The position numbers and the translations under genes were made by a program. Under the pieces are notes generated by a model. That model was not told the DNA's origin. It made no database searches and saw only the letters and a program-made list of their open reading frames with translations. A DNA stretch of 32,000 bases, from assembly GCA_016432445.1 (NCBI GenBank), contig CP066689.1:720001-752000 (forward strand), given 5' to 3'. This document shows positions 3,123 to 18,336 of the stretch, one piece after another (position 1 is the stretch's first letter; each line of letters begins with the position of its first letter). Source of the DNA: Candidatus Saccharimonadota bacterium (GTDB taxonomy: Bacteria > Patescibacteriota > Microgenomatia > UBA1406 > GWC2-37-13).

Positions 3123-3129
3123 TATCTTT

Positions 3130-3168
3130 GTGACTCACATTGACTAAAAATTGACTCAAATTAACTCC
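3130..3168 (+). promoter_or_regulatory. four direct TTGACTNA-like repeats at 10-11 bp phasing (candidate operator / overlapping -35 array)
   Basis: GTGACTCA starts at 3130, TTGACTAA at 3140, TTGACTCA at 3151 and TTAACTCC at 3161. Spacings are 10, 11 and 10 bp. A possible -10 TAAATA lies at 3183-3188, and GGAGGTGA (3203-3210) precedes the ATG at 3220. Confidence 0.45.
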
Positions 3169-3219
3169 TTTTATTCTTGTAGTAAATAAAATACCAAAGC
3201 TTGGAGGTGATTTAACTTT

Positions 3220-3504
3220 ATGTCAATAATACTTTATGATGTAGTTATTGTTTTCAGAAGAGCTCACGGGTTTTGTGAATGCAATAAATCAGATCATTAT
3301 CACCAAGACAGATGTCAAAACCCAGTGCTTTGGAGAAGCCGGGGATTAAAATCGCATAAAGGGATATTGTTTGGATCATGGCAAATAAGCTACAAGATTC
3401 AGCCGGAAGAAGGCGGCCACAATAGTATTAAAAATATGCAGATTTTATGCAGTCAATGTGACCGGGAACTTAGAAAATATAGTCTCCGTTTTAAACAAAA
3501 GTGA
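3220..3504 (+). CDS. small HNH-like zinc-finger nuclease-family protein (possibly degenerate active site)
   Basis: 94 aa with good SD. Shows CxC...HxH...C and the HNH-core-like stretch YKIQPEEGGHNSIKNMQILCSQCD (GG-x5-N-x3-LC-xx-C). The position usually holding the catalytic His reads Tyr-Lys. Confidence 0.45.
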   Translation: MSIILYDVVIVFRRAHGFCECNKSDHYHQDRCQNPVLWRSRGLKSHKGILFGSWQISYKIQPEEGGHNSIKNMQILCSQCDRELRKYSLRFKQK

Positions 3505-3532
3505 ACGAATGTTTACTTGACTTTAAAAAATG

Positions 3533-3541
3533 TGCTACAAT
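3533..3541 (+). promoter_or_regulatory. extended -10 promoter (TGcTACAAT) 6 nt upstream of the rarA ATG
   Basis: TG at 3533-3534, TACAAT at 3536-3541, ATG at 3548. No SD fits in the gap, which implies a leaderless or near-leaderless mRNA. Confidence 0.4.
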
Positions 3542-3547
3542 ATTTTC

Positions 3548-4750: not shown

Positions 4751-4751
4751 C

Positions 4752-4833
4752 TGTCATTGCGAGCGAACAAAGTGAGCGCGGTAATCTAATGACCTGCGGA
4801 TTGCTTCGGTCATTACATTCCCTCGCAATGACA
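4752..4833. repeat. nested palindromic element (GTCATTGCGAG family), probable bidirectional terminator
   Basis: Outer 12-bp perfect stem TGTCATTGCGAG (4752-4763) / CTCGCAATGACA (4822-4833). Inner 8-bp stem TAATGACC (4787-4794) / GGTCATTA (4808-4815). It sits between the rarA stop and the cysS promoter. It is G+C-richer than its surroundings. Confidence 0.65.
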
Positions 4834-4872
4834 CTCGTTGTTTATCAGATGTTTTTGATATAAAATAAGGTT

Positions 4873-6279: not shown

Positions 6280-6438
6280 CAGACAACCGCTAAGAGTGCT
6301 AATCTGACTTGTGTTTACGATTGGAGCCTCACAACAAGCCTTTCTCTCATATTCGTATAAATTCATACATCAATAAATCTTCTTAAGCATATCTACTCCT
6401 TCCAAACTTTAAATAATAATCCGCTACTATTCGCATTA

Positions 6439-6447
6439 TGGTAAAAT
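6439..6447 (+). promoter_or_regulatory. extended -10 promoter (TGgTAAAAT) for tRNA-His
   Basis: TG at 6439-6440 and TAAAAT at 6442-6447, 9 nt before G-1 of the tRNA at 6457. Confidence 0.4.
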
Positions 6448-6456
6448 ATTCATATT

Positions 6457-6529
6457 GGTGATTGTAGCTCAATGGTAGAGCACCGCCCTGTGGAGGCGGG
6501 TGTTGCGGGTTCGAGTCCCGTCAGTCACC
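6457..6529 (+). tRNA. tRNA-His (anticodon GTG) with encoded G-1 and C73
   Basis: Hand-folded. G-1 at 6457, acceptor GTGATTG/CAGTCAC (one T-G wobble), D stem GCTC/GAGC. Anticodon stem CCGCC/GGCGG with loop CTGTGGA. T arm GCGGG-TTCGAGT-CCCGT (one G-T wobble), discriminator C. Confidence 0.9.
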
Positions 6530-8040
6530 CATAACGAGGGGTCAACAGTTTCAAACTGCTTGATTAGCTTGAAGCAAGGAGATAAAGCATCGGTTCTAAA
6601 TCCAGGATATGTGTAAACAACATTTTTTGGGAAAATAGAACCAAGTAGAACTCTTCTTTGTTGTAGACTCCCTTCAAGCCATGCTTTATCTACATTCCAT
6701 AAGAAGTCGTTCATAAAATTTACTACGATATCAATATCTACTTCTTGTAATTTAGCTTCACTTTTTTGGCTCTTTTGAACAAGAAGTTCATCTTCGATCA
6801 ATTCTAATTGTTCATTAAATATCTCATCTGTATAAACACCTCTAAGATGTTTTGCCACCAATCGTTTTCTAACCTCATGTAAAGCGCTAATTTCTTCCTC
6901 AAAGGATCTATACCTATTAGCTAAATGAGAATATCGTATTTCCCATTTTTCTTTTACCATCTCTGTAAACAGCTTTACTAGTTCCTGTTTTGGTTCTGCA
7001 TACCTCAAAAATACCACAAAATCGGTCTCAAAATCATCTTTTGGTATAGATGGACTATGGTGCTTACCACTAACACAATAATAATATGCATATTTACCTC
7101 CATTACCTCTACTAAAAGAACCTGTCATAGGTAGGCCACATTTATCACATAGGACACCTCGTAATGGAAAGATTTCATTTTGTCTATTGTGTTTTATCCC
7201 ATTAGTAAAAGATCTACCATTAATAATTGACTGAACCTTATAAAAAAGATCTTCTGAAATCATAGGAATATGTTTGCCGATTTTATCAATATTAAATACC
7301 TTACTCACGACATAGCCACAATAAAATTTATCTCGGAATATTCTTTGGGTTTGCTGATCACGAGTAATAGGAATCTTATTATTACCATAATTAATATAAA
7401 CCCCTAATTTATTCATAAAAGGCACGATACTAGCTAAGGAATAAGCGCCTGTTCCCATTTCTTCCCATGATTTTTTCACTAATTCAAATTGTTCAGTATC
7501 AGGTTCAATTACTTGTCTATTGTCTCTTGATAAATTTAAATAACCAACTGGAGCTTTACCGGTAGCCCAACCTTCTTCTAAACGTTTACGAATGCCATCT
7601 TTCGTCCTTACTCCCTTTGTAGCATTATCCAATTTTGCTACCGCCGCAAGAAGGGTTTCTAAAAACTCACCTGTGGGATTATTTTCTGTAGGCTCAGTAA
7701 CTGAAATTATTCTTATTCCATATTCAGCTAACCGTTTTTTTATTGCAAGGAAATCATAAGTTTCACGACTAATCCTATCTATTTTATATATGTAAACAGC
7801 AGATATTTCAGATTTATTTTTTCTACAATCTTCTAGAAGTTTTAATAATTCAGGTCGATTAATTGTTTTTGCACTAACACCTTCTTCTCTATAAACATTT
7901 ATTAAATCGTACCCTTGTCTTTCTGCTTCTCTTTTACAATAGTCATATTGATTATCAAGACTGAAGTTAGATACTTGTTCCTCTGAACTAACACGAAGAT
8001 AGGCATAGGCCTTTTTAATCATAATTCCATTATCTACCAT
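6469..8040 (-). CDS. large serine recombinase (integrase)
   Basis: N-terminal resolvase domain with a catalytic-Ser motif (AYAYLRVSSEEQ; YKIDRISR). Central recombinase domain, Cys-rich zinc ribbon (CDKCGLPMTG ... YAYYYC) and a coiled-coil C-terminal region. The last ~20 codons are antisense to tRNA-His. Confidence 0.9.
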   Translation of the reverse strand: MVDNGIMIKKAYAYLRVSSEEQVSNFSLDNQYDYCKREAERQGYDLINVYREEGVSAKTINRPELLKLLEDCRKNKSEISAVYIYKIDRISRETYDFLAIKKRLAEYGIRIISVTEPTENNPTGEFLETLLAAVAKLDNATKGVRTKDGIRKRLEEGWATGKAPVGYLNLSRDNRQVIEPDTEQFELVKKSWEEMGTGAYSLASIVPFMNKLGVYINYGNNKIPITRDQQTQRIFRDKFYCGYVVSKVFNIDKIGKHIPMISEDLFYKVQSIINGRSFTNGIKHNRQNEIFPLRGVLCDKCGLPMTGSFSRGNGGKYAYYYCVSGKHHSPSIPKDDFETDFVVFLRYAEPKQELVKLFTEMVKEKWEIRYSHLANRYRSFEEEISALHEVRKRLVAKHLRGVYTDEIFNEQLELIEDELLVQKSQKSEAKLQEVDIDIVVNFMNDFLWNVDKAWLEGSLQQRRVLLGSIFPKNVVYTYPGFRTDALSPCFKLIKQFETVDPSLWVTDGTRTRNTRLHRAVLYH

Positions 8041-8200
8041 TTTTGTTAAAGCTGCAACTTTCTAATTTATTTTTTTCTTCAAACTGTTGAAACCCAACTT
8101 CGATTAAAGCATCAAAGCAATCAATTATTAACTGAATTTGAGTATCAGTCATTTTTTCAGAAACTACACCTATAATTTTTCTTGCTTTTTCAATTGTCAT
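8030..8200 (-). CDS. 56-aa hypothetical protein upstream of and overlapping the recombinase start
   Basis: Hand-translated (MTIEKARKIIGVVSEKMTDTQIQLIIDCFDALIEVGFQQFEEKNKLESCSFNKNGR). Its 3' end overlaps the recombinase ATG at 8040 by 11 nt. Too short for the ORF track. Confidence 0.35.
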   Translation of the reverse strand: MTIEKARKIIGVVSEKMTDTQIQLIIDCFDALIEVGFQQFEEKNKLESCSFNKNGR

Positions 8201-8209
8201 AAATAATGA

Positions 8210-9049
8210 CTAATTGAATTTATAATCAGGGTTATTAACTCTCCAAAAAAAGAACTTAATCTTGGCTATGTTATTTAATGTCCTAAATTTAGCGTGATCA
8301 TATAAGTAGCTGTAAGCCAGCTCAATATTTTTCCCTAAAGTAGTTTTATTCTCGGCATCTTTAAAAAGTTTAAACCACCTTTTATCTAATTTTTGTTCTA
8401 TAACTGCAATATCGTTTATATCTATATCTAACTTCTCTGCATATCTTAAAGATTTTTCTTGAAATGCTACTTTTATATTAGGTTGCGATTTTATCCTTTC
8501 CGGTAAGGTTGCGATTATAGATGCTATCCCTACAGGTGGGTTTGAATGTTCTTCTGAAGATTGTTTTGATTCATGGGCTTCGCCATATAATTTATTTTTT
8601 TCATTATTTTCTTTTTCTTCATTGTTGTTTAAAGTAGATTTCGTTTCTCTTTTTATTGTAGTTTTCTTGTATTTATCGTTATCTATTTCATAGTTTGCTG
8701 AATTTTGAAAATAGTTATAATTGACAATCTCAATCCATAACCCTCTTACCGTTTTCCTCGTATTCGCCATTCCATGTTTCTTAATACGCCGCACAAAGCC
8801 TTCGATAACTGATTTTGTAGGTTTATCCTTTCTATATCCTACCCTATAACTACCAATTTCTCGCATTTCTTCGTAACTAGTTAATGTTTGTCCACGTTTA
8901 TAAATAACACCGTCTTTTTTTACTTCTGTATGATTAGCTTTGCCAATTAACCATATCCAAATCTTAAACCAGGTTAATGGCCATATCATTATTTCTGATT
9001 CAAATATTTTTCTGGCGATCATAAAATATCCACCTTTTATATTTTCCAT
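8210..9049 (-). CDS. winged-helix replication-initiator/replisome-organizer-like protein (phage/plasmid type)
   Basis: The N-terminal pattern GGYFMIARKIFESEI...W...KIWIWLIGKANH...KRGQTLTSYEEM...VIEGFVRRIKKHGM resembles phage replication-protein N-terminal wHTH domains. It is followed by an acidic/Asn-rich linker. ATG at 9049 is preferred over the track's TTG at 9070. Confidence 0.45.
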   Translation of the reverse strand: MENIKGGYFMIARKIFESEIMIWPLTWFKIWIWLIGKANHTEVKKDGVIYKRGQTLTSYEEMREIGSYRVGYRKDKPTKSVIEGFVRRIKKHGMANTRKTVRGLWIEIVNYNYFQNSANYEIDNDKYKKTTIKRETKSTLNNNEEKENNEKNKLYGEAHESKQSSEEHSNPPVGIASIIATLPERIKSQPNIKVAFQEKSLRYAEKLDIDINDIAVIEQKLDKRWFKLFKDAENKTTLGKNIELAYSYLYDHAKFRTLNNIAKIKFFFWRVNNPDYKFN

Positions 9050-9089
9050 ATTTATTAATTCTGTTAACAAAAAATCCTAAAGTAATTTT

Positions 9090-9344
9090 TCAACATCCAT
9101 AAATCCTTGACTTAACATCTTTCAGAGCGTAAAAATATTTTTTAGGACTTACTTTTACTGATTCATTCCAATATGATTGAATTGCTTTTTGAAGCTTAGA
9201 AGAGTTGTAGAATATAAAACTCATCTTTTTAGGATTTGTTTTATCAATGTCTATGAGAGGAAAATCCCACGCAATTAAAGCAGCAACTAAAGATAGTTCT
9301 TGTGAGATAAAATAATCATCCTCTCGTAATTCTTTCTTAATCAT
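9090..9344 (-). CDS. DUF5659-like small protein (phage-associated)
   Basis: YFISQELSLVAALIAWDFPLIDIDKTNPKKMSFIFYNSSKLQKAIQSYWN matches my memory of the DUF5659 pattern. Start taken at the internal Met (MIKKEL). Confidence 0.45.
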   Translation of the reverse strand: MIKKELREDDYFISQELSLVAALIAWDFPLIDIDKTNPKKMSFIFYNSSKLQKAIQSYWNESVKVSPKKYFYALKDVKSRIYGC

Positions 9345-9447
9345 AATGACAACTATTAAGTGATTACGAGAAGCTGTCAAGAAGGTAATTTGAAGCTAAA
9401 AAATAGATTTAGGCATAATCTTTATAATCACTTACTTGATTATGAAA

Positions 9448-10224
9448 TTAACGAAGATTAAATAGCCATGCTTTTTCTTCACGCATAAATTCAATGCTAA
9501 ATCTCTGTTTTAGTACTTTTTTTATTTTTTTATTTCTTATATTACTAACCGAATGACCTAAATACGAGCTCCTTATATCTTCATCAAATAACTCTTGATA
9601 TATTTTTATTATTTCTGATGTGGTAAACAAATTGTTACCTGTTCTTTTTCGTAATTCAAGAAAACTTTCTATTATTTTTCTCCATTTTAACGCTCCACTA
9701 AAATCAAGCGTTTCTATATTTCCATCACCCATTTTAAAGAAAAAACTTTTATTGTGATAAACGACATCTTCTCCAGACTTGAAAAATATGGTTTGATTCA
9801 TATTCAAATACTGATTAAGAAGTTGAGTATTTATATTACCAAAGACAATATCAGTATGATAAGCATCTTTATAAGGATTAATTGTCCAACAATCAAAACA
9901 ACCATAAGCTTTTAATTTATCTAAGAAAGCACGAAATAAAGATGATTCCATATTAGTGAAATTAAAACATTGGAGAGGTATCGTTCTTTTTTTAATCGAA
10001 GCCCATTCAATGATCGTCTTTAGTGTGTGAACATATTTATCATCTGTAGTTTTTGTTATTCTTTCTTGTTTTTCCTGCCATAATTTTTTGGCTTCTTCCT
10101 GCTTTTCTTTATAAGCTTTTTGTCTTGACTGCTCTTTTAATTTTTCAATTTGAGGGGTTAATGTATCAGGTATTATATCTGGATAATAAACGGCGGTAAC
10201 ATTTGATTGGCTTTTTTTAGCCAT
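9448..10224 (-). CDS. hypothetical protein with N-terminal charged coiled-coil
   Basis: 258-aa ORF in the minus-strand operon. No family recognised. Confidence 0.55.
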   Translation of the reverse strand: MAKKSQSNVTAVYYPDIIPDTLTPQIEKLKEQSRQKAYKEKQEEAKKLWQEKQERITKTTDDKYVHTLKTIIEWASIKKRTIPLQCFNFTNMESSLFRAFLDKLKAYGCFDCWTINPYKDAYHTDIVFGNINTQLLNQYLNMNQTIFFKSGEDVVYHNKSFFFKMGDGNIETLDFSGALKWRKIIESFLELRKRTGNNLFTTSEIIKIYQELFDEDIRSSYLGHSVSNIRNKKIKKVLKQRFSIEFMREEKAWLFNLR

Positions 10225-10256
10225 ATTTATTTTATCTTAATTTTTTTTAAAAAATA

Positions 10257-10583
10257 CTAAACAAGAGATTCTATCATTCCTTTAAATCTTTGTTTTTTAT
10301 ATTTTAGATTTAAGCAACATCTACAACCAATGACATCCTCTAATGGATGTTTATAAAGCATTCCAACACGTTTATTACAGTTAGGGCAAATGAACCAAAA
10401 TTTTTCGCCATTAAACTTTGTCCTTGAAGTAGTGAGATTCACTATAATCCCTAAAGCTTCAATTTGAGCATTAAGGAGAGTTATTTTTAACTCTTTTTGA
10501 GCTTTGCGCACCAGATCATCAATTTTGATCTTATAACAGTTTTCCGCTATGAAATTAGTTCCTAAATCACATGGGTTTAACAT
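10257..10583 (-). CDS. zinc-ribbon protein (CPNC ... CRCC)
   Basis: 108 aa. FWFICPNCNKRVGMLYKHPLEDVIGCRCCLNLKYKKQ resembles a widespread uncharacterised Zn-ribbon family found in mobile elements. It overlaps the upstream gene by 17 nt. Confidence 0.5.
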   Translation of the reverse strand: MLNPCDLGTNFIAENCYKIKIDDLVRKAQKELKITLLNAQIEALGIIVNLTTSRTKFNGEKFWFICPNCNKRVGMLYKHPLEDVIGCRCCLNLKYKKQRFKGMIESLV

Positions 10584-11196
10584 TTTGATTCTCCTGAATT
10601 ACCTGATTTTGACCAAGAATTGCAGTATTTGTTTTAATATTAAAGTTAACTTGTGGCTGCTTTAACATCCTTAAAGCTTGAATGGAAGTTAAATAGTGTC
10701 TATTCGCTCTGTCTAATTCTTTACTCAACACTGCCATTACTTTAATTCTTAATTCTGAAATTTGACCTGATGATATGTAAGTATTCATAAGGTTTTGTAT
10801 TTCTAATGTTCTTATATAGTTTATTGTTACAAGCTCTGCTGTTGCCTGTTCACTTATAGTTGTACAGCTATACTCTTTTTGCAACTTCCTTAACATATCT
10901 ATTGCAAAAGTTCTATAAGATTCATCTAGAGAACTTACCATTAAAGCTCCATTTTGAAACTCATTTAAAGTCATTGCTTTAAATAGATTTTTTTCTTTAG
11001 ACACAAAATTTTCACCCTCTAATTCTTCCTCATCATATTCATCATCTTCTTCTTTATTAATATTTTTTTTATCATTAATAATCTTTATCTCAGCATCTGC
11101 ATTTTGAATAACAGAATAAGGATCATAAGTCGTCTGTAAGCGATCAATATCCCTTTTAATTTCATCTACTGTTCTTATTTTTGTAGGAATATTCAT
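10567..11196 (-). CDS. hypothetical helical protein with acidic linker
   Basis: 209-aa ORF with an acidic stretch (EEDDEYDEEELEGE). No family recognised. Confidence 0.55.
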   Translation of the reverse strand: MNIPTKIRTVDEIKRDIDRLQTTYDPYSVIQNADAEIKIINDKKNINKEEDDEYDEEELEGENFVSKEKNLFKAMTLNEFQNGALMVSSLDESYRTFAIDMLRKLQKEYSCTTISEQATAELVTINYIRTLEIQNLMNTYISSGQISELRIKVMAVLSKELDRANRHYLTSIQALRMLKQPQVNFNIKTNTAILGQNQVIQENQNVKPM

Positions 11197-11282
11197 CAGT
11201 TATTATTATCCCACACATTTATCTATGCATGTCAAACTAAGATTAATGTTTGATTTATCTAACAAAAAAATACATAAAGCAG

Positions 11283-11549
11283 TTAAAAACCTTTAAAGAA
11301 ATCCGATAAAGAAACACCTAATGCATGAGCAATTCGCCAAATTGTGTGAAGACTAGGGGAGTATTTACCTTGTTCAATTTTATTTACATATGTATGGTAA
11401 TAACCGGCTTTAATTGAGAGTTGTTCCTGGCTGATATTTTTGCTTTCTCTAATCTTTCTTAAATATCTTCCAAAGAACATCGCAAAATCCTTTTTTTCTT
11501 TTCTCCTGGCAGCAGGATTATCTTCATAGCTAAGATTTTTAGGCTTCAT
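11283..11549 (-). CDS. XRE-family helix-turn-helix transcriptional regulator
   Basis: LRKIRESKNISQEQLSIKAGYYHTYVNKIEQGKYSPSLHTIWRIAHALGVSLSDFF is a canonical HTH_3 pattern. The start is uncertain: 11549 (MKPKNL) or about 11480 (MFFGRYL). Confidence 0.8.
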   Translation of the reverse strand: MKPKNLSYEDNPAARRKEKKDFAMFFGRYLRKIRESKNISQEQLSIKAGYYHTYVNKIEQGKYSPSLHTIWRIAHALGVSLSDFFKGF

Positions 11550-11606
11550 GCATATTATTACACAGAAACCTTCTCTTATCTGCACTGCACTACTATTGTG
11601 GCCTTC

Positions 11607-11615
11607 TGATATACT
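11607..11615 (+). promoter_or_regulatory. extended -10 promoter (TGaTATACT) 7 nt before ATG 11623
   Basis: TG at 11607-11608, TATACT at 11610-11615, ATG at 11623. It faces away from the XRE gene. Confidence 0.4.
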
Positions 11616-11622
11616 ATACATA

Positions 11623-12360
11623 ATGGGAATGCAAATAGCTTATGTTTTATGTGAAGAATGTGAATTTACAGTTATATTTAAGTCAAAAAATGATGCTTTC
11701 TTTTTTTGCAAAATAGACAAAGTCGGTTACAATATCCCCTTAGAAAATGCTAATAAGCCTTCGTGCCCTAAATGTAAATCTTTAATGGAATGTTATAGCG
11801 TATTAGAAGAAGATAATATTTGTCCTGTTTGCAACAACGGATATTTAAGTGTTATGCGCATTAAAGAAGAAGAATTAAAAACACCTAAACATCAAGAATT
11901 GGTCAACCAGATATTTAAAAATAAGATCAATAAAGATAAAGATGGAATAATATTGAAGACTTTAAAATATTCTGCAGCTTCGTCTCTATTGTTCTTTATT
12001 CCAATACTTGCAGTTATTAAACCAGAATTTGTTCAAGAAAATTTTATAGATAATTTTGTTTTAATCACCTTACTAGTATTCATAGTAAGCCTTATTGTTA
12101 TTGTTTTTTTTAAATTCATAAAGCCTCTTGGACTTAATAGATTTCTAATAAATGCAAGAAAACCTTCATTAATAGTAAGTTTTTGCCTGCTCTTAGCAGT
12201 TATAGGTTATTTCTATTGGTTTCAATGGAAACCAAGTGAGATTAGAAAATCATGCGCTAAAGAAGTTATAGAGAAATACAGTGGTTCAAATAAAAATAAT
12301 TATTATAGATTGTGCGTAACCCAAAAAGGATTAAAACCAGAATCTATTTTTGTTAAATAA
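11623..12360 (+). CDS. double zinc-ribbon protein with C-terminal multi-TM region
   Basis: CEEC, CPKC and CPVC pairs occur in the first ~75 aa. Three to four hydrophobic helices follow (AASSLLFFIPILAVI, FVLITLLVFIVSLIVIVFF, SLIVSFCLLLAVIGYFYWF). Start taken at the internal ATG of ORF 11548..12360. Confidence 0.55.
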   Translation: MGMQIAYVLCEECEFTVIFKSKNDAFFFCKIDKVGYNIPLENANKPSCPKCKSLMECYSVLEEDNICPVCNNGYLSVMRIKEEELKTPKHQELVNQIFKNKINKDKDGIILKTLKYSAASSLLFFIPILAVIKPEFVQENFIDNFVLITLLVFIVSLIVIVFFKFIKPLGLNRFLINARKPSLIVSFCLLLAVIGYFYWFQWKPSEIRKSCAKEVIEKYSGSNKNNYYRLCVTQKGLKPESIFVK

Positions 12361-12980
12361 TGGAAAATAAAATTACTGATATAAATGATTTAGTTGCATG
12401 TCTTACTGCTGCTGCTATGAAACCTCTGTTAAATGATAACGTTTGGCAATGTTATGGATATAACAAACGTCCGATTAAAGGTAATATTTGGAATAAATTA
12501 TTTCCTAAAAAGTTTGAATTAGATAACTTTATTACAAGAGAAATCCTAACTATGGGGTTAATTGATATATTAAATGGAATCAAGAAATCAAATCAAACAT
12601 TTGATACAAAATTGTTAATCTCAATAGGTCTTATTGATCAATATCTATCTACTACGAAGCACTTGTTTTCTGAGGATCTATTTATGGAAAATCTTTTTTC
12701 ATCCTATTATGCTTTTAAAATTTGCGATAAATCAAAGCTCCATGAACCTTTTATATTAAAAGCTAAGGATGTACTAAATAAGAAAAATTTTGCGAAATTT
12801 ATGGTTGGCACAATTAGGCTACTTGCAATCGAACATGCAGCCGATTATCTGTTGAACAGTAATAATATTAAGGATTTCGTTGACAATTCCCTCGTAGAAA
12901 ACATACTGAAAATTTCTATGCCAGAAGAAAAATGGAGAGAATATGGGAAACTAATATCTGAGAAAATTTTAAAAGTATAA
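12360..12980 (+). CDS. hypothetical helical protein
   Basis: 206-aa ORF. Its ATG overlaps the upstream TAA (TAATG). No family recognised. Confidence 0.55.
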   Translation: MENKITDINDLVACLTAAAMKPLLNDNVWQCYGYNKRPIKGNIWNKLFPKKFELDNFITREILTMGLIDILNGIKKSNQTFDTKLLISIGLIDQYLSTTKHLFSEDLFMENLFSSYYAFKICDKSKLHEPFILKAKDVLNKKNFAKFMVGTIRLLAIEHAADYLLNSNNIKDFVDNSLVENILKISMPEEKWREYGKLISEKILKV

Positions 12981-12987
12981 TAAAATT

Positions 12988-13641
12988 ATGATTCACAATA
13001 AGACGGAGCTTCTAATCTACCTTATACGCCATGCAGAGTCTGAAATGAATCAAAAACCCGAATTAATAGCCGGTAGAAGTCCCCAAAGCCCTCTTTCAGA
13101 AAAAGGGAAAATTCAATCTCTTAATTTAGGAAGAAAACTAAACCAAGAAGGAATTAAATTTGATGCAATATATTCATCTCCTTTAATAAGAACTAAAATG
13201 ACAGCAGAACTGGTCTTAAAAGAGATGAAAATATCAAAAGATATGATTATAGAAGTACCGGAGTTAGTAGAATTTAGTTCCGGTGATTGGGAAGGTCGCT
13301 CTAGACAAGAAATTTATACGCCAGAGATATTACAATACATAAATACAAAAGGGTCATTATTTACTCCTCCTAATGGAGAATCTCAATTAATGGTTGAACA
13401 TAGAGCATCCGGATGGTTTATTAAAGAAATACTACATAATCCTAATTATTTTGATAAAACAAAAACTATAGCTATTTTTTCTCATGGATTGACTATAAAA
13501 TGTTTACTTCATTTTGTAATGCATTTTGATGATCGTTTAATTTACAGAATCCGTTTAGACAATACCGCTTACTGCAAGTTACGCTTGAATCGTGAAGGAT
13601 GGTTTATTGATAGTCTCAATGAGACTTCACAATTACTATGA
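12988..13641 (+). CDS. histidine phosphatase family protein (phosphoglycerate-mutase-like)
   Basis: N-terminal RHG-type motif (LIRHAESEMN), SSPLIRTKMTAE and the C-terminal His motif (IFSHGLTIKCLL). Confidence 0.8.
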   Translation: MIHNKTELLIYLIRHAESEMNQKPELIAGRSPQSPLSEKGKIQSLNLGRKLNQEGIKFDAIYSSPLIRTKMTAELVLKEMKISKDMIIEVPELVEFSSGDWEGRSRQEIYTPEILQYINTKGSLFTPPNGESQLMVEHRASGWFIKEILHNPNYFDKTKTIAIFSHGLTIKCLLHFVMHFDDRLIYRIRLDNTAYCKLRLNREGWFIDSLNETSQLL

Positions 13642-13700
13642 ATACTTTACAGACATCCTGTTACAACCTTTAATCAAGACACTAATCTATTAAAAAATTA

Positions 13701-14003
13701 ATGAAAAAACTATACCAATTATTAGGCACTCTGTTTATCATAAGTGGGATCATTTTCCTGTTTATTCATTCAATGGTAGTTACAGACACAAAAGGTGAGT
13801 CTTTTGCCAGAGATCTCTTTGGTTTCCCTATCCCTCATCCTCCGGGGTGGACTTCCTTCATTCCAATCTTCAGTACACTAGTGATGTTTGTTTTTGAGTT
13901 TTTCTCACTGCATGGACTTGTCGGAATAGTTATTTTTGGAATCCTTATTTATATTGGCATCTTTATCATTGGTCTTGGTGGGAAAAAAAATAAGGCAGCA
14001 TAA
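13701..14003 (+). CDS. small three-TM membrane protein
   Basis: 100-aa, strongly hydrophobic ORF. No family recognised. Confidence 0.5.
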   Translation: MKKLYQLLGTLFIISGIIFLFIHSMVVTDTKGESFARDLFGFPIPHPPGWTSFIPIFSTLVMFVFEFFSLHGLVGIVIFGILIYIGIFIIGLGGKKNKAA

Positions 14004-14119
14004 AAACTGTTATATTAGTTCATAGAACGATGAAATGATTAGAAATCATCAAAGATGAAGATATATATGTCAAGTACCAAATTTATTAAATTCGTTCAAA
14101 TTTATTGATTACAAAATAA

Positions 14120-14314
14120 GCCATAAATAACAAAAAAATAGTAAACCATTGGCTAACACCGCAATTACAACAAAAAGTTCGAGATGTTTTTGAACCTCGT
14201 TATAAACGAGAACTAACAGATGAAGAAGTTTTTGAGATTGCAGATAATCTAACAGGTTTAATTGAGGTTATCCTTCAATACCAATGGAGAAAAAAATATA
14301 ACAATAAGACCTAA
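14120..14314 (+). pseudogene. start-less ORF fragment (…NHWLTPQLQQKVRDVFEPRYKRELTDEEVFEIADNLTGLIEVILQYQWRKKYNNKT*)
   Basis: A 64-codon open frame ends at TAA 14312-14314 and has no in-frame ATG, GTG or TTG. The protein-like composition suggests a C-terminal remnant of a longer gene. Confidence 0.25.
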
Positions 14315-15120
14315 ACGCTAGAATTAAGTTGTACAGCTATATTATTAAATTCTTTAGAAAAATCTTCCAATCGCTTATTTAAATTAAGATCAACATAATT
14401 ATTTATCAATTTCAATAATTGTAAATACAGGTCTGCTGATAAAAATATTGATTCATTAACCCAATTATCACTTGGTGAATCATTGTAAATCATTTGATTT
14501 GTTTTGTGTTCAGCAAAATCTTCTAAGCTAGAATACAGCGAATGTGATATCTTAGAAACTTGCCAATAAATTTGTTTGTAATAGTAAAGATAACCAGTTT
14601 CTAAAGCTAAATGTCTCATTGTTGAGAAACTCCAGTTATATTCTTTTATTCCTTTAACTTTTTTTATTTTAAGTTCTTTAATTATATCTTCTCTTGATTT
14701 TTTAATCTTTTCGATAATTTTAATATCACATTTTTCTAATACTTTTTCATATGCTTTTTTTATATCAGGCTTTGATATACCTTCATATAAACCCTTCAGC
14801 CTATTATAATAATCTAATGTGTCATACTCCTTAAATAAAATAGCTCTATTAGTACTGTCTTCTTTTAAGATGTAAGCTAAGGTTACTAATCCCTCAAATA
14901 TCGATCTCGCAATAATGGCTGCATCTTCACCATATCCTTGAGAAAGGATTGTTATAGCTCTGCATGACTTAGTTATTTTAGAAAGAGTCAAAAAAACAAT
15001 TTTATCTATGTCTACATGTTCTTTAGATTGATACTTTACCTCTAAAACATACTTTAATTCATCATTATAGAAATTAATAAGCTTTAATAAATAGTTTTTT
15101 AATGACTCAAACATATTCAT
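14311..15120 (-). CDS. DUF5677-like helical protein
   Basis: KSCRAITILSQGYGEDAAIIARSIFEGLVTLAYILKED resembles the DUF5677 core as I remember it. ATG at 15120 is preferred over the track's TTG at 15144. It is the last gene of the 16911-to-14311 operon. Confidence 0.5.
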   Translation of the reverse strand: MNMFESLKNYLLKLINFYNDELKYVLEVKYQSKEHVDIDKIVFLTLSKITKSCRAITILSQGYGEDAAIIARSIFEGLVTLAYILKEDSTNRAILFKEYDTLDYYNRLKGLYEGISKPDIKKAYEKVLEKCDIKIIEKIKKSREDIIKELKIKKVKGIKEYNWSFSTMRHLALETGYLYYYKQIYWQVSKISHSLYSSLEDFAEHKTNQMIYNDSPSDNWVNESIFLSADLYLQLLKLINNYVDLNLNKRLEDFSKEFNNIAVQLNSSV

Positions 15121-15127
15121 AAAAAAA

Positions 15128-15874
15128 TCATATGAATTCTGCAATAGTAGGTAATATCGGTTTATTGTTAACTCCTATGAATTTATGAGAATATCGTACT
15201 TCGTTTTCTAATGCCGGTAAAATAGGCTCTAAGATAAGAACTGTAGAAATTATATTTGTACCATCTTGAGTAGTTATCTCATCCTGTATAGCGCCACTTC
15301 CTCCCGCCATCGCCGAGACAGCTAACATAGTAATAATTTGATGATGCATGTCAGGAGTAATAACTAATAAATTATTGTCTCCTTTCGTAAACTTCGGTAA
15401 AGCGTTTTTGATGGAATCTTCCACTGTATACTTTATTTCTTCTTCAGATGAAAAAGAACCTGCTTCACCATTAATATATTTAGGCTTACTTACACGTATT
15501 CTTTTTTGACTTTCAGATAAGTTCGAATCTTTCCATAATTGACCTTTCCATGATGGAGCCTTAACTTCAACCTTCCACAAATTATTTTTTAAATCTTTTA
15601 TGGATAGATCTAACTTCGTATAATCTTTTCCATCAGGCTCTAAATCTTCTATATTTAATCTTAGAATTTTTCCAAAAAAATATATTGTTTTAAGTTCACC
15701 AAGTAGTTCATTTCTTTGTTTATCAATTAAAACACGCTTTTTGTTTTTTTTATAATAATCTTTGTTTAAATAAAAAACAAATTCAAGCCATTTATTAATT
15801 TCCTGATTCCACTCGGGTGAGTAACCAAAATCATCTTGAGGAGTATGTTGAAAATAATCAGAATAAAAATTCAT
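15128..15874 (-). CDS. hypothetical protein with PD-(D/E)xK nuclease-like motif
   Basis: 248 aa. LEPDGKDYTKLDLSIKDLKNNLWKVEVKAPS gives P-D, 21 residues, then E-V-K, preceded by a Glu-containing helix (NELLGELK). The fold assignment is inference only. Confidence 0.4.
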   Translation of the reverse strand: MNFYSDYFQHTPQDDFGYSPEWNQEINKWLEFVFYLNKDYYKKNKKRVLIDKQRNELLGELKTIYFFGKILRLNIEDLEPDGKDYTKLDLSIKDLKNNLWKVEVKAPSWKGQLWKDSNLSESQKRIRVSKPKYINGEAGSFSSEEEIKYTVEDSIKNALPKFTKGDNNLLVITPDMHHQIITMLAVSAMAGGSGAIQDEITTQDGTNIISTVLILEPILPALENEVRYSHKFIGVNNKPILPTIAEFI

Positions 15875-15892
15875 TCCATTTGATTAGGAAAC

Positions 15893-16276
15893 TTATACTT
15901 TTTTTCCTAAGAGATTGACAAGAAGATTGAAAAATTTATCTGGTGCTTTATCTAAACTATCAACCACAAGTTTTAATTTTTCTTTTTCTCCAATGTTAGC
16001 CAATTGCTCTGCTTCTCGTTGCAAAATTTCCTTTAAAGCATTAAAAGCTCCATGAATCAAAGTTGCTCTTACTTCATGTTTCTTTTCTTTGTGATATAAC
16101 CACACCGCAATCAATATCAATGCTACTCCCAATGAATTATTTGCAAGATATTGCCATTTGTCTGGAGATAGTTGTAGTGATGTTGTTCCTATTACAATTA
16201 CACCACCAATTCCACCAGCCAATTCTAAGACATTGCTAATTGTCACATTTACTTTAGGATTAAACGGTAATGACAT
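15893..16276 (-). CDS. two-TM membrane protein with C-terminal charged helix
   Basis: 127 aa. TM helices LAGGIGGVIVIGTTSL and LGVALILIAVWLY. No family recognised. Confidence 0.5.
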   Translation of the reverse strand: MSLPFNPKVNVTISNVLELAGGIGGVIVIGTTSLQLSPDKWQYLANNSLGVALILIAVWLYHKEKKHEVRATLIHGAFNALKEILQREAEQLANIGEKEKLKLVVDSLDKAPDKFFNLLVNLLGKKV

Positions 16277-16299
16277 GTGAATAAATTATATCATCAGTT

Positions 16300-16911
16300 T
16301 TATATCCTCACTAGTCTGAAGTTTTTTAAGGATTTACCTAAATTCAGCAAAATAAAATTCCTAACCCACTCTTTTCCTTCAGCAGCAATTTTAACTTTCA
16401 ATAAGTACCTCTTTTGATCAAGTTGAAAATCCGGCTTTTCCCAAGAATATAGATAACTTTCATTATTAAAGGCATAGCATTCATCCATTCCTTGTTTTTT
16501 TATAGCTATAGAAATTTCTGTTGACTCATCAGGTGGTATTGTTTCTCTTGAAACAAGTAATGCATCTCCAATATTAACACCCCCATGATAATCTACTGGT
16601 TCTTTTGTAGTAGTCCAACGACCATTTATTTTGAGCAATTCTGCCTTTGTTTCAGGATCAAGAAAACTTAACCATACCCGAGCATTTGTAGCTGTATTAC
16701 TACTAATAAAAAAACTTAATATTCCTCTTTTAACATTTATAACACTAACATTCATAAATTTATAATGATCTTTAGCTGTAGGAGGTTGAAAAATAGGGGA
16801 AGTCCCTATATCTATTTTAAAATTGGGGGCTGTTAATATATCTGTTAGCCTTTGAAGTAACCATCCAATAATTGCACCAAATAATAATAGTAAAAATTCC
16901 TTTAATTGCAT
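16300..16911 (-). CDS. N-terminally membrane-anchored protein with beta-rich extracytoplasmic-looking domain
   Basis: 203 aa. Single N-terminal TM (FLLLLFGAIIGWLLQ). No family recognised. First gene of the cassette. Confidence 0.5.
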   Translation of the reverse strand: MQLKEFLLLLFGAIIGWLLQRLTDILTAPNFKIDIGTSPIFQPPTAKDHYKFMNVSVINVKRGILSFFISSNTATNARVWLSFLDPETKAELLKINGRWTTTKEPVDYHGGVNIGDALLVSRETIPPDESTEISIAIKKQGMDECYAFNNESYLYSWEKPDFQLDQKRYLLKVKIAAEGKEWVRNFILLNLGKSLKNFRLVRI

Positions 16912-16922
16912 AATTTGTTTAG

Positions 16923-16931
16923 ATTATAACA
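16923..16931 (-). promoter_or_regulatory. extended -10 promoter (TGTTATAAT on minus strand) for the four-gene cassette
   Basis: The reverse complement of 16923-16931 reads TGTTATAAT, 11 nt upstream of the ATG at 16911. Confidence 0.45.
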
Positions 16932-16989
16932 GAGAGTATTAAAAAGCAGAAAAATAAGAATGAAGATTGCTCATTCCTTGTATAATTGG

Positions 16990-17088
16990 TTCTAAGAACT
17001 CATCGTTAATGACCCATTTTTTATGGCTTGAATTTATCTTGATCTTATCAAGATTGTCCTGACGCTCCAGTCAACTCCCGGAGTGTCT
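16990..17088 (+). repeat. repeat copy A: degenerate tRNA-His 3'-end-like segment plus 77-nt two-hairpin trailer
   Basis: 17012-17088 matches 18233-18309 at 68/77 positions by hand alignment. Hairpins are ATCTTGAT/ATCAAGAT (17036-17054) and GACGCTCC/GGAGTGTC (17061-17087). 17004-17017 (CGTTAATGACCCAT) resembles the tRNA end CGTCAGTCACCCAT. Confidence 0.8.
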
Positions 17089-17134
17089 TTAAGTGTCTTT
17101 AATATATAAAAAAACTTTTGATATACTTTGAATC

Positions 17135-17692
17135 GTGAGACAGGGCAGAATTGTTTATCAGGGTAATACTAAAAAAGGTAATGAAATTGTAATCCGTTAT
17201 CCTATACCAGAGGATCTTAAAGCGATGACAGACTATATGAATGCCCTGTCTTTGGAACAAACGTTTATAACCTTTCAGGGAGAACAACTAACTCTTAAGG
17301 AAGAAAAAAAATACTTACAAGGGATATTAAAAAAGATTCAGAAAAGAGAAGCCGTAAAATTATTCGTGTTCCACAAGAATCAATTAATCGGGATCTCCGA
17401 TATTGTTATGCAAGAAAGAACATCGGCTCATGTAGGTATCTTTGGACTAACAATAACGAAAGATCACCGTGGAGAAGGCATAGGCAAACTCTTAATGGAA
17501 TTAGTTATTAATGAAGGAATTACGCATATACCGCAATTAAGAATTATTACACTTGGAGTGTTTGCTAATAATCCCATTGCTTACGGTTTATATAAAAAAT
17601 TTGGTTTTATAAAATTAGGAAAAATACCAGGAGGAATCAAACATAAGAACAAATATATCGACTATATTTCTATGTATAAGATAATCAAATAA
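17135..17692 (+). CDS. GNAT family N-acetyltransferase
   Basis: Acetyl-CoA-binding motif HRGEGIGKLLMELVI and C-terminal YKKFGF. GTG start lies 7 nt after TGaTATACT (17119-17127). Confidence 0.85.
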   Translation: MRQGRIVYQGNTKKGNEIVIRYPIPEDLKAMTDYMNALSLEQTFITFQGEQLTLKEEKKYLQGILKKIQKREAVKLFVFHKNQLIGISDIVMQERTSAHVGIFGLTITKDHRGEGIGKLLMELVINEGITHIPQLRIITLGVFANNPIAYGLYKKFGFIKLGKIPGGIKHKNKYIDYISMYKIIK

Positions 17693-17724
17693 AATTTGGG
17701 CCAGAAAAAATTTAACCTATAAAT

Positions 17725-18183
17725 ATGATGATTCATATCCGAAAATTAACCAATAATGAATCTATTCCCTGGGAACTTCTTCTTTTGGCAGATCCTTCAG
17801 TCAAAAAGATAAAGGAATATTTGAAAAATGCCATTAGTTATGTCGCTTTAATTGACGATAAAATTGTTGGCATATATGTACTACAAAATAAAAACAATGG
17901 TGTTGTTGAACTTAAAAACATTGCTGTCAGAAAAACTTATCAAAATCAAGGAATCGGAAAAAAATTAGTTTTGGATGCTATTGAGAAAGCCAAATCTTTC
18001 GGAGCAAAAGAAATAGAAGTAGGAACAGGAAACTCAAGCATTTCTCAGTTAGCTTTCTATCAGAAATGCGGATTTCGAATCACTGAAATAGTTAAAGATT
18101 TTTTTATCGATAATTATCCTCAAAAGATATTTGAAAATAGAATTCAATGTACAGATATGATAATGCTTTCAAAAGATCTGTAA
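17725..18183 (+). CDS. GNAT family N-acetyltransferase
   Basis: VRKTYQNQGIGKKLVLDAIEKAK (Q/R-x-x-G-x-G/A motif) and YQKCGF. 152 aa. Confidence 0.85.
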   Translation: MMIHIRKLTNNESIPWELLLLADPSVKKIKEYLKNAISYVALIDDKIVGIYVLQNKNNGVVELKNIAVRKTYQNQGIGKKLVLDAIEKAKSFGAKEIEVGTGNSSISQLAFYQKCGFRITEIVKDFFIDNYPQKIFENRIQCTDMIMLSKDL

Positions 18184-18210
18184 GACCCCTCAAATAAAGT
18201 ATCATTTGTG

Positions 18211-18309
18211 TTCTAATTGAGTCCGCCCAATCACCCATTTTTTATGGCTTAAATTTGTCTTGATTTTATCAAGATCGTCCTAACACTCCAGTACACTCCC
18301 GGGGTGTCT
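18211..18309 (+). repeat. repeat copy B: tRNA-His 3'-end-like segment plus 77-nt two-hairpin trailer
   Basis: 18217-18238 (TTGAGTCCGCCCAATCACCCAT) aligns with tRNA 6511-6532 at 16/21 positions. Its CAATCAC (18228-18234) is a perfect Watson-Crick complement of the tRNA 5' acceptor GTGATTG. The trailer is homologous to copy A. Confidence 0.8.
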
Positions 18310-18336
18310 ATTATTACCTTGTGGTAAACTTTGTGT

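Follow-up and report, generated by a model that had tools for sequence, protein, structure and literature searches.

The large serine recombinases (LSRs) phiC31, Bxb1, A118 and TP901-1 have a resolvase catalytic domain, a recombinase domain and a zinc ribbon with long coiled-coil helices, and they act on short att sites that share few bases. The LSR described here, which was found in a 32,000-nucleotide stretch of DNA (the whole stretch analysed, hereafter the window), has the same domains, and the attL and attR of its element have 6 bp (ACCCAT) in common. However, unlike the phiC31-type LSRs, the window element uses the 3' end of a tRNA gene as its target, has its attP within the recombinase ORF, and has a recombinase C-terminus that is changed by integration. 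No description of an attP within an LSR ORF with a C-terminal change was found in the literature searched. Among integrase genes, an internal attP is described there only for archaeal tyrosine integrases (PMC8371274). These SSV-type "suicidal" integrases are tyrosine recombinases of archaeal viruses and plasmids, are described as exclusively archaeal, and are thought to be inactivated when their gene is split (PMC8371274). The rebuilt attP ORF of the window and the related contig L254 point to the same organization, in that attP lies within the integrase ORF and the gene is partitioned on integration. However, the window recombinase is a bacterial serine recombinase that loses no more than its final 23 codons, for which others are substituted, and therefore all recognised LSR domains are intact.

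A second parallel is offered by mycobacteriophages of clusters G, I, N and P, whose immunity is integration-dependent (Broussard et al. 2013, as related in PMC9635641): attP lies within the repressor gene, a tyrosine recombinase serves as integrase, and an ssrA-like degradation tag is the part removed. The mycobacteriophage switch and the window element share a gene-internal attP and an alteration of a protein C-terminus by integration, and the behavior of the switch differs between the free and integrated states. The split gene is a repressor there but a recombinase here; the XRE gene of the window element (11283-11621) is 4.3 kb from either junction.

Serine integrases at tRNA genes are rare in the literature searched. 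Passages of two accounts report, as rare exceptions, phiRSM1 (a small resolvase-like enzyme at tRNA-Ser), Mycobacterium AICEs (tRNA-Leu) and an LSR in 27 of 937 tycheposon-like Prochlorococcus elements (PMC3218068; 10.1101/2020.12.28.424599). By description, these resemble the window element in joining a serine recombinase to tRNA-linked integration, and the tycheposons and AICEs also resemble it in combining an integrase, a replication module and cargo; neither a gene-internal attP nor a C-terminal swap appears in those passages (PMC3218068; 10.1101/2020.12.28.424599). The gene content of the element (LSR, DnaD-like protein, XRE regulator and cargo) would fit the tycheposon-like elements, a family defined in Prochlorococcus. 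The original prediction, made from the window sequence, called the pairing of a serine integrase with a tRNA unusual; this is true of the literature but not of the LSR clade described below, where it is the rule. A classical Islander-type tRNA island was considered and rejected. The sole recombinase belongs to the serine family, with no Phage_integrase match in Pfam among the listed element ORFs of at least 50 aa. In place of the displaced tRNA piece, tens of nucleotides long, that such an island would carry, the element end has only 6 nt identical to the tRNA, and the longer tRNA-like stretch at 18206-18238 stems from an older event.

The recombinase gene and its two junctions

The data favor, with a probability of about 0.85, a plasmid-like integrative element of 10,485 bp in a Candidatus Roizmanbacteria chromosome, inserted by its LSR at the extreme 3' end of tRNA-His and carrying attP within the LSR gene. 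The features at its two ends are:

6458..6530, plus strand: intact tRNA-His(GTG), with G-1 at 6457 (ARAGORN; Rfam RF00005, 67.3 bits)
6527..6532, no strand: attL core ACCCAT, with the same sequence at attR (sequence; dyad scan 13/25)
6469..8040, minus strand: LSR ORF in its integrated-state form, 523 aa (Pfam; translation; AF2 model of homolog P0009)
8030..8200, minus strand: 56-aa ORF overlapping the LSR start codon (alignment A4)
16939..17016, minus strand: detached LSR 3' exon (P arm of attP), encoding WVINDEFLEPIIQGMSNLHSYFSAF and a stop (translation; rebuilt attP ORF; BLASTP to P0009)
17012..17017, no strand: attR core ACCCAT (sequence)
17018..17099, plus strand: trailer 1, the host-side (B') flank of attR and copy one of a 92-nt direct repeat (repeat search)

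As first proposed, the 523-aa minus-strand ORF is an LSR, with all three domains over the curated Pfam cut-offs. The resolvase domain (PF00239, E 8.6e-33) covers residues 11-157 with a YLRVSS motif, and R16 and S18 are invariant in alignment A1; the recombinase domain (PF07508, 1.6e-6) and the zinc ribbon (Zn_ribbon_recom, PF13408, 7.5e-6) follow, with C298 and C322 invariant and C301 nearly so. The fold was assessed on P0009, a 67% identical homolog of the window protein, whose AF2 model matched full-length serine integrase complexes in Foldseek (E 5e-21, about 545 columns), as well as phiC31, Bxb1 and A118, and contains long helices at 354-431. The window ORF is predicted to be the enzyme of attP x attB integration. 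The 56-aa ORF at its start keeps its position in four related elements, with 35-55% identity and 10 invariant columns (alignment A4), and may be a candidate directionality factor or regulator.

The tRNA-His(GTG) was predicted on the plus strand at 6457-6529; the strand stands, and the called gene is 6458-6530 (Rfam match 6458-6529), position 6457 being the extra G-1. Most of this gene forms the host-side (B) arm of attL, and its final five nucleotides plus one make up the core ACCCAT. The final 20 codons of the LSR ORF plus the stop (WVTDGTRTRNTRLHRAVLYH and stop, 6469-6531) are the exact reverse complement of the tRNA, as had been noted. In translation, residues 1-505 are common to the integrated and excised forms, the WV codons overlie the att core, and residues 506-523 plus the stop come from antisense tRNA-His. 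Crossover must be confined to the ACCCAT core, and the crossover dinucleotide would probably be AC at 6527-6528, judging from the dyad axis of the rebuilt attP. The dyad symmetry of that site is modest (13/25), and the best axis in the related locus L043 falls outside the shared core.

The idea that the junction creates the C-terminus seen today was borne out, and the displaced true C-terminus was located at 16939-17016. When this attR side is joined to the attL side (6527-8040), the LSR ORF continues across the junction (reading DPSLWVINDEFLEPIIQGMSNLHSYFSAF and a stop) and ends in SLWVINDEFLEPIIQGMSNLHSYFSAF and a stop. The rebuilt C-terminus is identical to the natural end of P0009 (NPSLWVLNDEFLEPIIQEMTILYKVF) at 22 of 32 positions (BLASTP, E 2e-14). 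As read from the sequence, attP lies within the LSR gene, about 25 codons ahead of its stop, and therefore integration would swap the last ~23 amino acids of the enzyme for codons read from the tRNA. The exon is joined to the LSR ORF in the excised form only. P0009 itself is encoded on a 12.8-kb contig (L254) that has no tRNA and that looks circular because its first and last 127 nt are identical. On this contig the LSR gene is followed by genes on the same strand, and the contig sequence spanning the junction runs colinear with both window halves, the exon DNA aligning with L254 9240-9310.

The detached exon among relatives

An antisense tRNA 3' end within the ORF tail was found at 57 of 65 loci with more than 28% identity to the window LSR versus 0 of 9 IMG/VR LSRs. 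Tallied over 63 tRNA-linked loci, six of which are at or below 28% identity, the tRNAs have 13 amino-acid specificities and the overlap has a median of 58 nt (range 11-306 nt). For loci at which attL and attR could be matched up, the cores in common are 6-13 nt long and lie at the tRNA 3' terminus. The tRNA arrangement is a clade trait, common to most checkable relatives of this integrase. The tails vary with tRNA identity, and a different tail is kept in two relatives without an adjacent tRNA (one of them circular-looking), so the antisense tail is not conserved coding sequence, in agreement with the original prediction. Close relatives in phage, plasmid and IMG/VR collections were not found; identity to LSRs in the phage and plasmid collections is at most ~31%, and the best IMG/VR and INPHARED matches reach at most ~30%.

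The same split gene occurs in an independent Saccharibacteria subfamily only 29-30% identical to the window LSR. Here the far end of the element holds an exon encoding NWNxLVSDxYRIKG..VLYPTNYIP, beside a short core that matches the tRNA 3' end exactly, in L043 and L046 (both at tRNA-Arg) and in L080 and L045 (both at tRNA-Glu).

The leading alternative to a functional tail swap, with an appreciable chance of being correct, is that the overlap reflects genome compaction only, that is, attP sits in the last recombinase codons by chance and either tail works alike. The tail is flexible and undocked in the AF2 model of P0009 (pLDDT below 50 at residues 501-516 and 525-537), and the model gives no hint of the role of the C-terminal helix. 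Tails derived from tRNAs are also clearly tolerated across the whole range of overlaps. Additionally, the P arm is conserved as DNA in the tRNA-His subfamily, where a 15-nt exon block is identical between LSRs only 49% identical, and P0040 on L264, the second relative without an adjacent tRNA, retains both the motif LEPII and the DNA TTAGAACCAATTATA. A binding-site constraint could therefore mimic peptide conservation, and it could account for part of the exon conservation in this subfamily. However, an amphipathic pattern is common to the excised-type tails of subfamilies only 30-45% identical (P0009, P0040, P0080, P0101, P0111, L204, and rebuilt L035 and L043). The Saccharibacteria exon spans 40 codons (~120 bp), far longer than the usual attP half-site of ~25 bp, and over 24 of its codons L043 and L080 have 7 identical, 12 synonymous and 5 non-synonymous. 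On this codon comparison, the mostly synonymous changes show the detached exon to be under protein-level constraint.

State, cargo and extent of the element

The retrieved SRR121134xx contigs are all colinear with the window and contain neither an empty site nor a circular junction, nor any other variant of this particular element; current mobility is therefore unproven. This would fit a remnant that is defective and fixed (an island now domesticated or dead), in which the reading of the ORF into the tRNA is decay, and in-frame stops occur close to the C-terminus in L010, a related Roizmanbacteria copy. However, nothing is broken in the window in the LSR ORF, in the detached exon and its stop, in either core or in the coupled 56-aa ORF, and the arrangement recurs at many different tRNAs in the relatives counted above, which requires repeated recent integration and not decay. 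A remnant is accordingly considered improbable.

The genes carried between the two junctions are:

8210..9070, minus strand: DnaD-like replication/helicase-loader protein (phrog_2514, E 2.2e-15)
9090..9380, minus strand: DUF5659 protein, also on the circular-looking contig L254 (Pfam PF18903, 3.5e-11; L254 gene list)
9448..11196, minus strand: three ORFs of 258, 108 and 209 aa (no Pfam, PHROG or PADLOC family over threshold)
11283..11621, minus strand: XRE/Cro-type HTH regulator at the divergent junction of two gene blocks (Pfam HTH_3, 4.1e-15)
11548..14003, plus strand: cargo of two family-less ORFs, a histidine phosphatase (12988-13641; His_Phos_1, 1.4e-36) and a small membrane protein
14311..16911, minus strand: cargo of a DUF5677 protein (14311-15144; 1.6e-24) and three further ORFs

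The Pfam and PHROG matches support the predicted XRE, DUF5659 and replication (DnaD-like) proteins. A nuclease-like cassette, also predicted, was not supported: the 14311-16911 block holds DUF5677 plus family-less genes, with nothing significant in PADLOC (a sub-threshold LmuB match, E 9.5e-4). The proposed CPR host was corroborated by a CysS protein 100% identical to that of a Candidatus Roizmanbacteria MAG.

Temperate phages and satellites typically combine an XRE repressor with a replication module and a serine integrase, and the presence of all three raises the question of a prophage or phage satellite in place of a plasmid-like element; the L264 relative also has HTH_17 (excisionase-like) genes and a 1085-aa ORF. 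This too seems unlikely. No capsid, portal, terminase or tail family was found by Pfam or PHROGs in the ORFs scanned, 10.5 kb is small for a phage, and the best matches in IMG/VR and INPHARED include no member of the LSR clade.

The plasmid-like element is bounded by the ACCCAT cores at 6527-6532 and 17012-17017, and G+C is 27-30% within it versus 35-39% in the flanks. Of the 10.5-11.8 kb first estimated, the shorter figure was correct and the longer was not. Two further features lie to the right:

17135..18183, plus strand: two GNAT acetyltransferase genes between the trailer copies (Pfam Acetyltransf_1)
18206..18320, plus strand: older scar, made up of ~33 nt similar to the 3' portion of tRNA-His (by eye, 23/33) that include an in-register P-arm-like TTAGAAC, then ACCCAT and trailer 2 (alignment A2)

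Both tRNA-His 3'-end-like copies that had been taken to mark the boundary (17004-17017 and 18217-18238) are present, and each heads a copy of a 92-nt direct repeat (17008-17099 and 18229-18320, 84% identical), but their role as boundary is revised. The first was rejected as a displaced tRNA fragment, being instead the P arm of the element plus the 6-bp core; tRNA identity at this end is exact for 6 nt only (10/13 by eye). The second (~18206-18320) is an older scar outside the LSR element, and the GNAT genes are not part of the element, the conserved LSR exon at 16939-17016 preceding them. A simple serine-recombinase event does not account for the duplication of the 92-nt trailer. It is very improbable that the true right end is the second copy (core 18233-18238), with an element of ~11.7 kb that includes the GNAT genes and an internal duplication at 17008-17099: that copy is closer to the tRNA end (TCACCCAT, 8 nt, versus ACCCAT, 6 nt) and its TTAGAAC is in register with the P arm, but the conserved recombinase exon with intact frame and stop sits at the first copy, the ORF read through the second gives WVIGRTQLEHK and a stop without the conserved helix, the sister-species loci L261 and L263 have a second tRNA-His 3' fragment in the equivalent position after tRNA-His with no LSR element, and G+C climbs to 32-33% across the GNAT genes.

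Integration and the recombinase C-terminus

In the model proposed here, the LSR gene would be continuous in the free circle and encode a 528-aa protein with a conserved helix-forming tail (INDEFLEPIIQGMSNLHSYFSAF). Recombination within ACCCAT would rebuild tRNA-His exactly, strand the final 23 LSR codons at the opposite end of the integrated DNA (16939-17010), and fuse the remaining LSR gene to antisense tRNA codons, giving the 523-aa protein, whose basic tail is determined by the host. Because the gene would be continuous when free and fused to the tRNA when integrated, two recombinase isoforms are expected, one per state. We infer that the tail swap may alter the activity, stability or directionality of the enzyme. 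A more specific and quite tentative possibility is that the swap is a built-in state sensor, in which the helix-tailed free form and the tRNA-tailed form differ in directionality, stability or partner binding. In serine integrases, the choice of direction is otherwise ascribed to separate directionality factors. If the state-sensor reading is true, the placing of attP within the element's own recombinase gene would control integration versus excision, a principle of control that has not been described for this class of enzyme.

An attachment site inside the recombinase gene

The original prediction described a tRNA-His gene whose 3' end is read in antisense by the tail of a serine recombinase ORF, in a CPR-type genome. 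ARAGORN, Rfam and translation recovered the tRNA and the antisense tail as described, with positions off by at most one base. The additional G-1 typical of tRNA-His is at 6457.

6458-6530, plus strand: tRNA-His(GTG), called by ARAGORN (Rfam tRNA model 6458-6529, 67.3 bits)
8040 to 6469, minus strand: large serine recombinase (LSR) ORF, 523 aa, with Pfam Resolvase, Recombinase and Zn_ribbon_recom

The recombinase call was borne out by the profile search of the ORF, in which all three matches (Resolvase, E 8.6e-33; Recombinase, 1.6e-6; Zn_ribbon_recom, 7.5e-6) exceed the curated cut-offs. In the AlphaFold model of P0009, a homologous recombinase, everything outside the C-terminal tail matches full-length serine integrase complexes (Foldseek E 5e-21), plus phiC31, Bxb1 and A118. 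By all the sequence and predicted-fold criteria applied, the window enzyme is classed as a large serine recombinase. The CPR assignment agrees with CysS (4873-6279), which is 100% identical to a Candidatus Roizmanbacteria MAG protein and has its following relatives in Roizmanbacteria and Microgenomates.

The terminal 20 codons and stop of the recombinase ORF, WVTDGTRTRNTRLHRAVLYH* at 6469-6531, are the exact reverse complement of the tRNA. G+C is 35-39% in the flanks versus 27-30% from the tRNA to 17 kb, and the common core of attL (tRNA side) and attR (far end) is ACCCAT, at 6527-6532 and 17012-17017, with a spacing of 10,485 bp. Because this core is so short, the element contributes at most 5 terminal tRNA nucleotides, and the antisense tail of the ORF is almost wholly host DNA. 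When attP was rebuilt by joining the element sides of attR and attL, the ORF stayed open, reading ...FETVDPSLWVINDEFLEPIIQGMSNLHSYFSAF*. This free form of the recombinase is 528 aa, and its final 23 codons and stop lie 10.5 kb away from the remainder of the gene.

16939-17010, minus strand: detached 3' end (exon) of the recombinase gene, 23 codons and stop

The attP site is therefore located within the window recombinase gene, and integration splits the gene. It had been proposed that the junction creates the present C-terminus, and the alternative C-terminus recovered here matches the end of P0009 (537 aa, 67% identical), whose natural C-terminus is ...FEGTNPSLWVLNDEFLEPIIQEMTILYKVF... The rebuilt 35-residue end shares 22/32 identities with P0009 (BLASTP, E 2e-14), and since P0009 carries the matching C-terminus naturally, the rebuilt end is not a product of chance.

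P0009 is encoded on L254, a metagenome contig (JGI Ga0163151_10007412, 12,821 bp) whose opening and closing 127 nt are identical. Identical contig ends are the usual sign of a circular molecule, so L254 is probably a complete circular element, and it could represent a plasmid-like replicon that exists free in a CPR bacterium. Its genes across 1-12821 encode, besides the 537-aa recombinase, a Toprim primase, DUF5659, a small resolvase and an HTH_17 protein, and the cargo looks metabolic (adh_short, Ldh_2). No tRNA gene is present on L254, and genes lie 3' of the recombinase on the same strand. Its DNA over the junction, CCCTCGTTATGGGTGCTTAATGATGAGTTCCTAGAACCAATTATACAG, is colinear with the joined window halves, CCCTCGTTATGGGTCATTAACGATGAGTTCTTAGAACCAATTATACAA. 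P0040, encoded on L264, is another relative that lacks a neighboring tRNA; it retains ...NLEPIITSFYKLQQLF and the DNA block TTAGAACCAATTATA. Synteny across attP was tried and set aside, as the 203-aa ORF beside the detached exon shows no homology to the one after the recombinase in L254; cargo varies among relatives.

The rebuilt window attP contains TCGTTA-N8-TAACGA centered on AC at 6527-6528, and we infer that this AC would be the crossover, on a dyad mapping that is weak (score 13/25), disagrees between loci and is inconsistent in L043, a Saccharibacteria element. The predicted junction sequences are ...GACCCCTCGTTATGGGTCATTAACGATGAGTTC... for attP and ...CCCGTCAGTCACCCATTTTTTATGGCTTGAATTT... 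for attB.

tRNA targeting and split genes across the clade

A homolog search with the window recombinase gave 555 relatives at E <= 1e-10. Antisense-tRNA peptide endings (e.g. GIRTRD...LLLYH, GLEP...SNQLSYS) are recognizable in nearly all of the 120 relatives listed. Most of these database entries (P0001-P0120) carry spurious tRNA-antisense C-terminal tails, so that they misrepresent the C-terminus of the free form, and a few stop abruptly at contig ends just beyond the junction. Nearly all of the closest relatives (58-72% identity) have WV at the junction, the translation of the tRNA-His end CACCCA. With a tail-trimmed alignment (A1), 80 loci were fetched from each of three collections (species-representative genomes, JGI metagenomes and IMG/VR) and scored by tblastn and ARAGORN.

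Table. Loci with an antisense tRNA 3' end within the recombinase ORF tail, by identity to the window protein; counts cover only loci with the complete C-terminal gene part.
Identity >28%, genomes: 33/35
Identity >28%, metagenomes: 24/30
Identity >28%, genomes and metagenomes: 57/65
Identity <=28%, genomes and metagenomes: 6/17
Identity <=28%, IMG/VR LSRs: 0/9

The reading of the ORF into the tRNA is a family trait of the relatives of the window recombinase. Among the 63 tRNA-linked loci there are 13 amino-acid specificities and 25 anticodons, with Glu (20), Leu (12), His (5) and Arg (5) the commonest, and the overlap has a median of 58 nt (range 11-306 nt). Hosts are mainly CPR (Roizman-, Woese-, Davies-, Levybacteria, Saccharibacteria, Berkelbacteria and Pacebacteria), with some contigs labeled in the databases as Chloroflexota, Thermoanaerobaculia, Verrucomicrobia or Gammaproteobacteria. 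Ten contigs (L013, L020-L024, L027, L029, L030 and L032) are labeled 'uncultured Gammaproteobacteria' or 'Pseudomonadales'; since the clade is biased toward CPR, such labels could come from errors of binning or naming, or there could have been real spread.

In elements that could be paired, the attL/attR repeats are short and lie at the extreme tRNA 3' end. The search for attR with exact tRNA-derived k-mers returned mostly chance 10-mers, and cores were kept only if they were at least 11 nt or also continued the ORF. The core is GGTGTACCAT in two Saccharibacteria elements at tRNA-Arg (L043 and L046), whose element-side arms are alike and diverge immediately past CCAT, GGGGTACCATA in L035, and a 13-mer in L032. 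Two candidates with 9-nt matches, L051 (Daejeonella) and L253, were close to chance level and were dropped as evidence; the latter would have been a 1.95-kb mini-element at tRNA-His (locus positions 9540-11560, core TCACCCAAG), with a rebuilt ORF extending into a ribbon-helix-helix gene. A third, the Roizmanbacteria locus L010, was rejected as a paired element: an 11-nt core lies 11.4 kb off, the rebuilt tail WVTGEYLSQTKLEERRNNF* is weakly consensus-like, and the recombinase (10001-11574, 69% identical) has in-frame stop codons near its C-terminus that truncate the database entry, P0031 (435 aa). It is probably a decaying copy. A Logan contig, L259, opens with a Nextera adapter remnant (AGATGTGTATAAGAGACAG, positions 1-17), an assembly artefact.

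When the rebuilt L043 tail was used as a query, the exon NWNxLVSDxYRIKG..VLYPTNYIP was found upstream of the recombinase in L080 and L045, which are at tRNA-Glu whereas L043 is at tRNA-Arg. In L080 the exon adjoins a short core, TGGTGA, identical to the end of its tRNA-Glu. Over 24 exon codons, L043 and L080 differ by 12 synonymous and 5 non-synonymous changes, with 7 identical, so the detached exon is under protein-level selection and must be translated in some state. The recombinase ORF across attP is the only reading frame that reaches it. The recombinases of L043, L080 and L045 are just 29-30% identical to that of the window, and the split gene in Saccharibacteria provides independent confirmation from a distant subfamily. 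Natural non-tRNA tails (P0080, P0101, P0111, L204 and L047) and the rebuilt L035 tail have a common amphipathic pattern of a hydrophobic residue, E/N, any residue, two hydrophobics, and so on, ending in L/F/Y-Y.

L045 (Nanosyncoccus) has three exon copies (7784-7951, 4375-4545 and 3049-3138) upstream of a single recombinase gene, pointing to integrations at one tRNA-Glu that were tandem or successive. In L080 (~8425-11552) the exon is merely ~1.5 kb upstream of the recombinase start, which makes this element ~3.1 kb, scarcely more than the recombinase. Element sizes range from there up to the 10.5 kb of the window.

Extent and nature of the window element

An element of 10.5-11.8 kb had been proposed, the upper figure reaching to the second of two downstream copies of the tRNA-His 3' end. 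Both copies are present, and each begins one copy of a direct repeat.

17008-17099: first copy of the 92-nt repeat (trailer)
18229-18320: second copy, 84% identical to the first

The conserved recombinase exon sits at the first copy, whereas the ORF read across the second gives WVIGRTQLEHK*, so the 10,485-bp extent stood and the extension to the second copy did not. The repeats bracket two GNAT acetyltransferase genes. The string at 18206-18238 is ~23/33 like the tRNA-His 3' part (by eye), with TTAGAAC in the register of the P arm (the displaced gene end near attR), followed by ACCCAT and the second trailer. From these sequences it was concluded that the GNAT pair and second copy are a scar from an earlier event, which may have been a single-crossover insertion via a homologous tRNA-end-plus-trailer segment, a model that does not account for duplication of the trailer. 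Each trailer contains two small hairpin-forming palindromes. The tRNA was the sole Rfam match over the element, so the trailer is not a known RNA.

Two sister species (CysS 77% and 75% identical) are without the LSR element, yet both have a second 3' fragment of tRNA-His a few dozen bases beyond the gene, and at this spot a 228-aa ORF distinguishes two contigs whose CysS is identical. The tRNA-His site is thus an old hotspot of integration or variation, independent of the LSR element. Variation after tRNA-His is seen in sister Roizmanbacteria loci L261 (~2080-2140), L263 (4874-4969) and L260 (4732-5418), where a terminator-like hairpin and then the second fragment directly follow the tRNA; in L263, ARAGORN calls a 96-nt 'tRNA-Tyr(ata)' at the fragment.

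Other genes of the element are as follows.

8030-8200, minus strand: 56-aa ORF overlapping the recombinase start by 11 nt; conserved at the same position in L250, L252, L253 and L254
Further genes: DnaD-like replication protein, DUF5659, XRE regulator, histidine phosphatase, DUF5677 protein and unknowns

The 56-aa ORF, which had no match to any known family, is a candidate directionality factor or regulator. In relatives the replication module is replaced by Prim-Pol/AAA_25 or Toprim primases. The element is read as a small integrative plasmid-like element. A relationship to a phage or satellite is unlikely: no virion, conjugation or defence families were detected among its genes, PADLOC found no defence system in it, and there were no relatives above ~31% identity in INPHARED phages, PLSDB plasmids or the best IMG/VR matches. 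Scans of IMG/VR by protein profile and attP DNA pattern also gave no close relatives, the attP pattern being without any match. Of the variants the original prediction looked for, att-like junctions were found (the ACCCAT cores and the rebuilt attP), whereas this exact element gave neither an empty site nor a circular junction, all contigs retrieved with the exact LSR, CysS, GNAT and M23-like proteins being colinear with the window.

Possible consequences of the exchanged C-terminus

The recombinase has two alternative C-termini, one for the free and one for the integrated state, and the swap may matter for the enzyme. It could affect directionality, interaction with a partner (for example the 56-aa protein), or stability, the non-polar ends of the free-form tails being a weak hint of a degron. 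In the integrated state, recombinase expression could also be damped by transcription that converges with that of the tRNA gene. The AlphaFold model of P0009 has a low-confidence, undocked helix at residues 514-527, and this offers no mechanistic help.

Gene-internal attP sites are known for archaeal SSV-type tyrosine integrases, where they were termed exclusively archaeal (PMC8371274), and in the repressor gene of some mycobacteriophages (PMC9635641). In the SSV type an archaeal tyrosine integrase is partitioned, whereas here it is a bacterial serine recombinase and the outcome is milder, as the tail is swapped and the enzyme is not destroyed. The tycheposon preprint gives 27 LSR-bearing elements among 937 (10.1101/2020.12.28.424599), and the LSR survey of Durrant et al. 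leaves tRNAs unmentioned. No report of a serine integrase gene spanning its own attP was found in the literature searched, which is an absence there and not proof.

The original reading of this locus is supported and the finding is real. The splitting of the gene at integration goes beyond that sequence-only view, and accompanies tRNA targeting in a large, mostly CPR clade. An entire LSR clade that targets tRNAs of 13 types, mostly in CPR but also on contigs assigned to other phyla, goes against a working rule of mobile-element genomics, and tRNA-based island finders limited to tyrosine integrases and long tRNA fragments will miss such elements. Directionality factors are hard to find, which leaves the control of direction in serine integrases an open practical problem, and a natural two-isoform system with one form per state is a direct test bed for it. 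Described mobile elements and genetic tools are both scarce for CPR bacteria, and these loci supply predicted integrase/attP/attB sets for Roizmanbacteria and Saccharibacteria that are directed at conserved tRNA ends.
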